Positions 296 through 670 are shown, counted from the stretch's first letter. The stretch is DNA of 670 nt from Escherichia coli (GCF_003334385.1 NZ_QOWN01000154.1), one strand, 5' to 3'. Program-made: numbers and translations. Notes: generated by a model from the sequence alone, not told the origin.

Positions 296-516
296 AGAAA
301 TTACGGGTAACCGTAGAACCTTTTCAGGGAACAATTCCGTTCCGTATTTTGCAGCGTGGTCGTGTTCTTGTTGAAGGTTCGTTCAGTGGTAAATGTACGC
401 AATTACACTCCCGGACCTTTCAGGTGAATGCCACGAATGAAGAGCTAACCGTTGAGTGTACGATGAATGCCGCTAAATGCCGCATGGTATCCGCTGCATT
501 ACAGCCAGTGTGTTGA
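292..516 (+). CDS. Hypothetical small protein (74 aa), no family recognised; candidate moron or accessory gene downstream of the lysis cassette
   Basis: Track ORF MKKLRVTVEPFQGTIPFRILQRGRVLVEGSFSGKCTQLHSRTFQVNATNEELTVECTMNAAKCRMVSAALQPVC, ATG to TGA, with SD GGAGGA upstream and ATGA overlap with Rz. By my manual counts GC is about 45-48% in 301-480, against roughly 68-70% in 61-180 and about 60% in 541-600. It has no signal peptide or hydrophobic segment, and four Cys that do not form a CxxC motif. Alternating hydrophobic and polar residues near the N-terminus suggest beta strands. Confidence 0.5.
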   Translation: MKKLRVTVEPFQGTIPFRILQRGRVLVEGSFSGKCTQLHSRTFQVNATNEELTVECTMNAAKCRMVSAALQPVC

Positions 517-522
517 GCGACC

Positions 523-531
523 TTATTATCC
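523..531. repeat. Right copy of an exact 9-bp direct repeat TTATTATCC
   Basis: Identical to 274-282. It starts 7 nt after the TGA stop of the small ORF at 514-516. Confidence 0.35.
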
Positions 532-642
532 ATGCGCGGTATTGTCGCCGTATTCCTGCATTAACAGAGACCGCAGCCCGACCGGGAGACTCCTCTGCGC
601 GAGTGTGCGGGGATAATCAAAAACGATACACACCGGGGTTTA

Positions 643-661
643 CCGCGTTAACGGAGCGCGG
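643..661. other. Short inverted repeat (CCGCG-N9-CGCGG) containing the palindrome CGTTAACG; possible weak hairpin
   Basis: CCGCG at 643-647 pairs with CGCGG at 657-661, and the loop contains the palindromic octamer CGTTAACG at 646-653. No U-run follows (GCGTTGTCCC), so it is not a convincing intrinsic terminator. Confidence 0.2.
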
Positions 662-670
662 CGTTGTCCC

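Follow-up and report, generated by a model that had tools for sequence, protein, structure and literature searches.

A conserved non-coding block between the lysis and packaging genes of lambdoid phages, with a putative conserved fold in the mRNA-sense strand

The distal end of a lambdoid lysis cassette

The window, the whole 670 nt stretch of Escherichia coli DNA analysed here, is the distal end of a lambdoid lysis cassette, containing the 3′ end of Rz with the embedded Rz1 and a low-GC ORF of 74 aa. Over its whole length it matches Stx-converting and other lambdoid phages with up to 96.7 % identity; the left part is annotated as endopeptidase Rz, and the Rz region of the matching records as endopeptidase Rz or lysis protein. 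Positions 1–295 of the + strand are the 3′ end of the i-spanin gene Rz, in a frame that is open off the left end of the window and terminates in ...EYIRTQCTKLAFYYPEDI*. Embedded within it in another frame (21–206, + strand) is Rz1, encoding the o-spanin lipoprotein of 61 aa, which has at its N-terminus MKLCALTLPLVVSACGS, a lipobox. This layout is as in lambda Rz1 and K-12 rzoD.

The 74-aa ORF (292–516, + strand) is a hypothetical protein in RefSeq. It matches PHROG 2571 (phrog_2571) over profile positions 100–172 of 291 only, and may correspond to one domain, or a fragment, of a family of longer phage proteins. It is not present in Sakai Sp10, lambda, or mEp460, where the slot is either empty or holds other sequence, and it is one of various inserts that can separate Rz from a conserved block. 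The 15 nt spacer that follows, GCGACCTTATTATCC (517–531, + strand), is flank-specific and belongs to the ORF insert, being common only to copies with the 74-aa ORF in the multi-copy alignment.

Base composition changes at the end of the ORF, from 46.7 % GC in 292–516 to 57.8 % in 517–670; a sliding profile was also run, and the GC content of 1–291 is 57.4 %. The initial annotation had described this step as a return to backbone sequence of about 60 % GC. The step is real, although the figure was slightly too high. Comparison of 129 copies places the ORF as an insert before a conserved block that starts at about 532. There are alternative inserts on the left and the block is shared, therefore the return to backbone is borne out, with the low-GC ORF as inserted cargo that separates Rz from a backbone unit.

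In the prophage that matches the window exactly (L001), one strand carries holin, lysozyme, DNA methyltransferase, Rz, and the 74-aa ORF, followed by a 345-bp gap and then the downstream genes. Beyond the gap, on the same strand, are a TonB-family lipoprotein gene, an HNH endonuclease, and the terminase small and large subunits, with a YlcI/YnfO-family gene on the opposite strand between the TonB-family gene and the HNH endonuclease. The packaging module, further downstream, is HK97-like. In L002, a related Stx2a phage, a cos-like site and a small terminase gene of the lambda type come after the same sequence.

Extent and distribution of the conserved block

The segment 517–670 is not the end of a gene or a terminator region; after the 15 nt spacer, it is the first part of a discrete backbone block that does not encode protein. 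Of the ~180 bp of this block, the first 139 nt are inside the window (532–670, + strand) and ~41 nt are past it, ending in ...GGAAGAAACCGGA; in L001 the block occupies 5016–5195. A covariance model, R1, matches window positions 529–670 (E 4e-53), the match being cut at the 3′ end. On the left, conservation across all flank types starts at (A/G)TGCG, which is window position 532, and on the right it stops at GGAAGAAACCGGA, at about window position 711. Homology between L001 and L002 ends ~41–45 nt past the end of the window, with total divergence after this. The most invariant stretch, UGCGCGAGUGUGCGGGGAUAAUCAAAAACGAUACACACCGGG (597–638, + strand, from the columns of alignment A1), includes the single-stranded A-rich AAUCAAAAACGAU.

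Unannotated prophage DNA matches 517–670 with 100 % identity, and this segment occurs at 4484 places in 1853 of 5426 complete E. coli genomes, with a median of two copies per genome and a maximum of nine. No feature is annotated on the block in E. coli genomes. A sensitive search identified the same segment in 398 phage records, including lambda-like, 933W-like, and mEp460-like phages, and a scan of viral contigs with a 21-nt core motif added 120 further loci. In lambda, where there is no second copy, the block is between bor and lambdap78 at 46864–47038 by full covariance-model match (BLAST core 46885–46981). In the K-12 prophage DLP12 it is between borD and ybcV, and in Sakai Sp10 it is at 1946752–1946940 of NC_002695.2.

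By tblastn with Rz, an Rz gene is upstream on the same strand in 122 of the 129 block copies and on the opposite strand in none; in six of the other seven, the sequence on the upstream side is too short for Rz to be placed. The distance from Rz to the block falls into discrete classes, from 0 to ~1275 nt. As judged from these comparisons, the lambda-like phages of Escherichia and Shigella have the block directly after the Rz/Rz1 spanin genes. Since it was never found apart from Rz, the block was ruled out as a MITE or other mobile element.

The block is not present in HK97 or HK022. A scan of genome contigs with Rz returned eight loci, and the Rz loci of Enterobacter, Pantoea, Pluralibacter, and Dryocola are without the block, so that these non-Escherichia loci give no added phylogenetic depth. 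Due to its absence from HK97, HK022, and these four other genera, the block is dispensable. The copies are all closely related, with core divergence of no more than ~27 % and essentially two core alleles. Mean divergence of the block is 13.4 %, compared with 15.2 % at Rz four-fold synonymous sites, and for the pair of lambda and window alleles the values are 27 and 29 %; sequence conservation alone is therefore no proof of constraint. Literature searches of a limited library found no paper describing the block itself, and yielded no data on transcripts, processing, or binding of its RNA.

Cargo at the edges of the block

At the left border, at least six unrelated sequences adjoin the block, including bor, the 74-aa ORF, and, in copies without an insert, Rz itself with its stop codon 9–20 nt away. 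At the right border there are at least eight, including cos with Nu1, a TonB-like gene region, the end of ybcV/lambdap78, HnrS, and a 933W-type terminase. All of the left and right flanks join at the same two positions and not inside the block. The bor insert brings its AT-rich upstream region with it; this region is part of the insert, and the block was ruled out as the bor promoter.

Lambdoid moron organisation and mosaic module boundaries have been described (Juhala et al., 2000, as cited in PMC4104026). Like lambdoid morons, the 74-aa ORF, bor, the TonB-like gene, and HnrS are cargo between backbone units, and like lambdoid mosaic modules, the block is a backbone unit with sharp junctions. 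The usual lambdoid backbone units are genes, however, whereas the block has no reading frame. In L001, a promoter-like ATGACC-16-TAGAAT with an upstream TG (5285–5312) is found before the TonB-family lipoprotein gene (5345–5671). With this site, the TonB-family gene just past the right border resembles a moron that is complete in itself.

Coding potential

No frame on either strand is open in all six of the reference alleles. The window, VT2phi_272, and mEp460 alleles share one + frame that stays open across the block; the same frame is interrupted by a TAA, through a change of ATAATC to ATAATT, in lambda, DLP12, and some other alleles. The alleles differ by indels of 1, 11, 12, and 17 nt, the open frame after TPGF varies between alleles, and there is no start codon conserved across the block alleles. 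A 10-codon mini-ORF from the ATG at 532 was rejected, as neither its start nor its frame is conserved. Some phage records annotate ORFs of 81–82 aa over the block, for example at 2476–2721 of L004 (NC_028656.1 35830–36075) and 2596–2844 of L005, and one block-spanning ORF is labelled 'Rz-like spanin'. Such ORFs are in different frames and positions between records, and those annotated over the block are probably spurious, being annotation artefacts.

Terminators and late transcription

The consensus scan found no hairpin-plus-U-run terminator in 517–670 on either strand, in agreement with the initial annotation, and in L001 there is no + strand terminator-like site from the ORF to the terminase genes. 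The only two terminator-like sites in the window, at 328–343 (+ strand) and 315–302 (− strand), are both inside the 74-aa ORF; in the case of the hairpin at 328–343, GTATTTTG comes next. RNA folding of 500–670, which had been proposed as a check, gave an MFE of −51.9 kcal/mol (z +0.71), no better than shuffled sequence.

Late transcription of lambdoid phages begins at pR′, and Q renders it resistant to terminators; the transcript passes through the lysis genes and, across the joined cos site, into the head genes. A terminator would in any case be ignored by Q-modified polymerase. In L001, L002, and L138, the block is between co-oriented late genes, with lysis genes on one side and packaging and head genes on the other. 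Since there is no terminator before the terminase genes, read-through is the sensible reading, and it is to be expected because the late genes are co-oriented, there is no terminator-like site, and the polymerase is Q-antiterminated. We therefore infer, as had been suggested initially, that late transcription reads through 517–670. As it was first described, the segment is ordinary: an intergenic stretch of a lambdoid late operon without a terminator, as Q-antitermination predicts.

A predicted fold in the mRNA-sense strand

An RNAalifold consensus was made from 39 non-redundant alleles on the + strand and has 32 pairs, at −30.9 kcal/mol. It contains a long conserved hairpin at 539–629 (+ strand), in which helix 1 pairs 539–545 with 623–629 (98.5 % paired across the 39 alleles), helix 2 pairs 551–561 with 605–615 (99.7 % paired), and two 3-bp stems are enclosed, 577–579/584–586 and 593–595/601–603. 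This is followed by hairpin 5 at 643–661 and, beyond the window, by hairpin 6, which pairs 686–690 with 706–710, both on the + strand.

The inverted repeat at 643–661, containing CGTTAACG (646–653), had been noted in the initial annotation as weak and as the only notable structure. The repeat is real, consisting of CCGCGUU (643–649) and AGCGCGG (655–661) around a 5-nt loop, with a stem of 7 bp that includes five G-C pairs and one G-U. It is not negligible, however, since with a pair probability of 0.98 it is the most robustly predicted hairpin of the window allele, nor is it alone, the long-range hairpin at 539–629 also being predicted from the consensus and conserved across homologues. The initial annotation had further overlooked that the region is part of a discrete element of wide conservation, for which the + strand has a conserved predicted fold. 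Hairpin 5 has a different but still self-complementary sequence in other alleles, being kept by compensatory changes from CCGCG/CGCGG to CUGUG/CGCAG, with UCUCAU/AUGGGA in 933W-type phages, and it is deleted in the lambda-type and L012-type alleles. Like an intrinsic terminator, it has a stable G+C-rich stem; unlike one, it is not followed by a U-run, CGUUGUCCCC / CGUUGUCCCCUCAUGG being 3′ of the stem, and it is internal to a larger conserved element.

Helices 1 and 2 contain GC-to-AU, UA-to-CG, and CG-to-GC compensatory changes, together with many changes from C-G to U-G. In an alignment of close and recombining relatives, from which the structure itself had been derived, 98.3 % of sequence-by-pair cells are standard pairs and seven pairs have double changes; none of 500 shuffles reached the observed pairing or covariation, and controls in which the structure was slid along gave 35–57 % pairing. 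Compared with column-shuffled alignments, the consensus energy has a z of −6.5 on the + strand and +0.6 on the − strand. On a neighbour-joining tree there are 1.03 substitution events per column at paired sites and 2.13 at unpaired sites, event counts by parsimony that recombination inflates. Of 55 one-sided changes, 38 keep the pair, against 26 expected from the spectrum at unpaired sites (P = 0.001), and all four double changes on a single branch are compensatory. Between lambda and the window, the deepest two alleles, all 11 pairs of helix 2 are kept despite changes at four positions, including a swap from C-G to G-C. Pairing is thus kept by compensatory and wobble changes above controls, as in a conserved structured RNA.

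The polymorphisms at paired columns are also asymmetric. C/T polymorphisms opposite an invariant G are frequent (alignment columns 28, 30, and 67 among others), whereas G/A changes opposite C are rare singletons, and at unpaired columns there is no such bias (18 C/T versus 15 G/A). A C/T change opposite G keeps the pair only in the + strand RNA. On the evidence of these alignments, this pattern appears to be the signature of selection on the mRNA-sense RNA.

Against this, single sequences fold unremarkably. The exact element has a z of +0.11 in the window allele, and lambda has −1.57 on the + strand and −2.61 on the − strand. For the window allele, the consensus structure has an energy of −41.5 kcal/mol, compared with an MFE of −64.9 kcal/mol, in which the 5′ and 3′ ends of the block pair with each other and helices 1 and 2 do not form. 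The ensemble probability of these two helices is ~0, and hairpin 5 (0.98) is the only consensus helix that is robust in this allele. Helices 1 and 2 exceed a probability of 0.5 in 20 of the 39 alleles, helix 6 does so in three, and helix 4 in none. Rfam 15, the families of which include AgvB (RF02702), AsxR (RF02703), STnc100, and Esr41, gave no gathering-level match in the window, L001, or L002, and at E≤10 only a chance match to mir-1421 (16.6 bits versus a gathering score of 45). A selected RNA structure in the block is plausible but short of established. There is moderate support for the + strand RNA having a conserved fold, made up of 539–629, 643–661, and the terminal hairpin past the window, that may be kept by selection.

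In addition, the CGCC of the internal loop of the long hairpin is complementary to the GGUG in part of the hairpin 6 loop (A1 columns 17–23 and 166–174, corresponding to window positions of about 544–550 and, beyond the window, 691–699). The lambda allele has another complementary loop pair, GUCA/UGAC, with the register shifted by one. The complementary loops could be a pseudoknot or an alternative fold.

HnrS and other prophage sRNAs

HnrS, the new name for EcOnc10, EcOnc11, and EcOnc12, is a 66-nt Hfq-dependent prophage sRNA with an intrinsic terminator, which has a seed perfectly complementary to the last 15 nt of mazF and represses hha (bioRxiv 10.1101/2025.11.27.690950). In L138, the mazF 15-mer, GTACTGATTGGGTAG, which was checked against K-12 mazF, is on the + strand at 5981–5995, and on the − strand a hairpin plus U7 ends at ~5947. 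From the positions of the seed and the terminator, HnrS is therefore L138 5947–6012 (− strand), which is 1946946–1947011 of NC_002695.2, ~10 nt past the right border of the block. In the Sakai Hfq-CRAC table (Table S2 of Tree et al., 2014), EcOnc11 in Sp10 is at 1946819–1946867 on the − strand. These 2014 coordinates are ~129 nt lower than those of the same sequence in NC_002695.2, and at face value would misplace the Hfq peak inside the block. Comparison of the mazF seed and the terminator ruled this out: the peak is HnrS, just outside the block and on the other strand.

GTACTGATTGGGTAG is on neither strand of the window or L001, and is found 160 nt from the block core motif in nine of 128 other copies, including Sakai Sp10. 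Judging by these matches, HnrS is one of the right-flank cargoes and is not in the lineage of the window. The block shares its neighbourhood with HnrS, namely the late-region stretch from Rz to the packaging genes in lambdoid prophages of EHEC and EPEC. Unlike the block, HnrS is on the strand antisense to the late genes, has its own terminator and a mazF seed, and is outside the block. Other candidates were also rejected. The anti-sRNAs AgvB and AsxR are 3′ of pR′ and upstream of the lysis genes, not at the block; EcOnc08, EcOnc21, and EcOnc42 are likewise located upstream of the lysis genes; and the Pas sRNAs have intrinsic terminators and other contexts.

Possible roles of the block

The whole is best explained, and with somewhat more confidence than doubt, by a transcribed backbone block with a conserved mRNA-sense fold that would act in cis on the late mRNA. 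The block would lie within the Q-antiterminated late transcript, which would continue through it into the packaging and head genes. Its + strand RNA would fold into the long irregular hairpin (539–629), the hairpin at 643–661, and the terminal hairpin just past the window. As a guess, this structure might be an endonuclease processing site or an exonuclease barrier, and might set the stability of the lysis-gene segment relative to that of the following genes.

RNase III processing hairpins are known from phages, such as T7 R1.1 and, in lambda, the N-leader and sib. Like these intercistronic hairpins, the block would be inside a long polycistronic transcript between blocks of genes, and has a predicted irregular hairpin of about two helical turns, here with helices of 7 and 11 bp on either side of an asymmetric internal loop, together an interrupted helix of 18 bp. 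The hairpin of the block is conserved in the mRNA-sense strand only. Unlike the RNase III hairpins, its upper part is a multibranch loop, and there is no sequence similarity; only the predicted shape is alike.

The main rival to a cis-acting element is a neutral recombination linker, that is, neutral backbone DNA that has been kept through shared ancestry and homologous recombination, with borders set by a few ancient moron insertions and repeats that are inherited but unselected. This is a possible though rather doubtful explanation. It is favoured by a block divergence close to that of Rz at four-fold synonymous sites, by there being only about two deep core alleles, by the unremarkable single-sequence folding and the half of the alleles without the predicted consensus hairpin, by HK97 and HK022, which are working phages without the block, and by the absence of any annotation at the block or of literature on it in the searches made. 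However, neutral DNA would not be expected to show the strand asymmetry of the consensus energies, nor does it readily account for paired columns that change half as often as unpaired columns, pairing kept above expectation with double changes that are all compensatory, or a helix 2 in which 11 pairs survive between lambda and the window. The flanks are also against it, all of them joining at the same two positions with none inside the block. The conserved pairs could instead be a site in the DNA, with inverted repeats bound by a phage or host protein or involved in packaging or injection near the right end of the chromosome. There are conserved inverted repeats, such as TATTCCCGGA...TCCGGGAATA in lambda, where the arms of helix 2 form an inverted repeat of 10 bp without a mismatch, as good on one strand as on the other, and in some lambda-like phages the block is ~70–110 bp upstream of a cosN-like sequence; in L002 this sequence is ~110 nt past the end of the window, outside the block. 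A site of this kind is nevertheless very improbable, as the two arms are ~43 bp apart and most alleles swap Watson–Crick pairs for G-U, which keeps the pairing of the RNA and destroys the dyad symmetry of the DNA. Moreover, three unrelated packaging modules accompany the block (lambda Nu1/A, HK97-like with HNH, and 933W-like), and in lambda the block is ~1.5 kb from cos and thus not tied to it. With regard to a lambda-type cos (cosQ-cosN-cosB), the window has no cosN-like GGGCGGCG....

Alternatively, the block may encode a trans-acting non-coding RNA, an sRNA or sponge made from the late transcript or from a promoter of its own, in which AAUCAAAAACGAUACACACC pairs with or titrates a host RNA or binds Hfq. 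The most invariant stretch, which includes AAUCAAAAACGAUACACACC, is rich in A and C and for the most part unpaired, the block behaves as a module of its own, and this lambdoid region is a known home of sRNAs, HnrS (EcOnc10–12) being directly at the right border of the block in Sakai Sp9, Sp10, and Sp12. Yet there is neither a sigma-70-like promoter nor an intrinsic terminator on either strand, there is no Rfam family, and HnrS itself is not in the lineage of the window. In the part of the Sakai Hfq-CRAC orphan table covered here, the only entry near the block is EcOnc11, which, given the ~129 nt offset, is the neighbouring HnrS. A trans-acting RNA is therefore considered improbable. It is least credible of all that the block is a small or degraded protein-coding gene: although one + frame is open in the window, VT2phi_272, and mEp460 alleles and some records annotate hypothetical proteins of ~81 aa over it, that frame has a TAA in lambda, DLP12, and other alleles, the indels shift the frame, no start is conserved, and the annotated ORFs differ in frame and position between records.

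A broader and more tentative proposal is possible but on balance somewhat doubtful. The block may be an undescribed structured RNA of ~180 nt in the late transcripts of lambda and of hundreds of Stx-type and other lambdoid phages and prophages, which would be selected in the mRNA-sense strand and would affect either the processing or the stability of late mRNA, or else serve as a regulatory RNA released by processing. Virulence-related cargo, bor and the HnrS sRNA among it, would land preferentially at its two edges. What the present comparisons add is that the backbone here is a discrete element without annotation, shared by about a third of complete E. coli genomes and by lambda itself. Its fold is conserved in a strand-specific manner, and both edges are hot spots for the insertion of cargo, including morons and HnrS, an sRNA regulating virulence. 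A functional RNA would open a new way to study how lambdoid and Stx phages balance lysis and structural genes from one transcript of more than 20 kb. If the RNA has no function, the block is still a useful landmark for annotating the cargo region from Rz to terminase. It also argues against ORF calls placed over its span, including that of the 'Rz-like spanin'.

A few copies are unusual in form or in source. In the viral contigs L098 and L126 the block is truncated, the first half up to the ATAAT core being joined to a cos-like GGGTCCTTTCTGGCATACGGGCCCGTTACGGGGCGGAAGCG and the 3′ half missing. L129 and L131, which are labelled 'MAG: Collinsella sp. Map_57_008' and thus actinobacterial, contain an E. 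coli-type Rz with 88–91 % identity, and L129 has a full-score copy of the block at 370–558. The assignment of these two contigs is most likely due to mis-binning or contamination.
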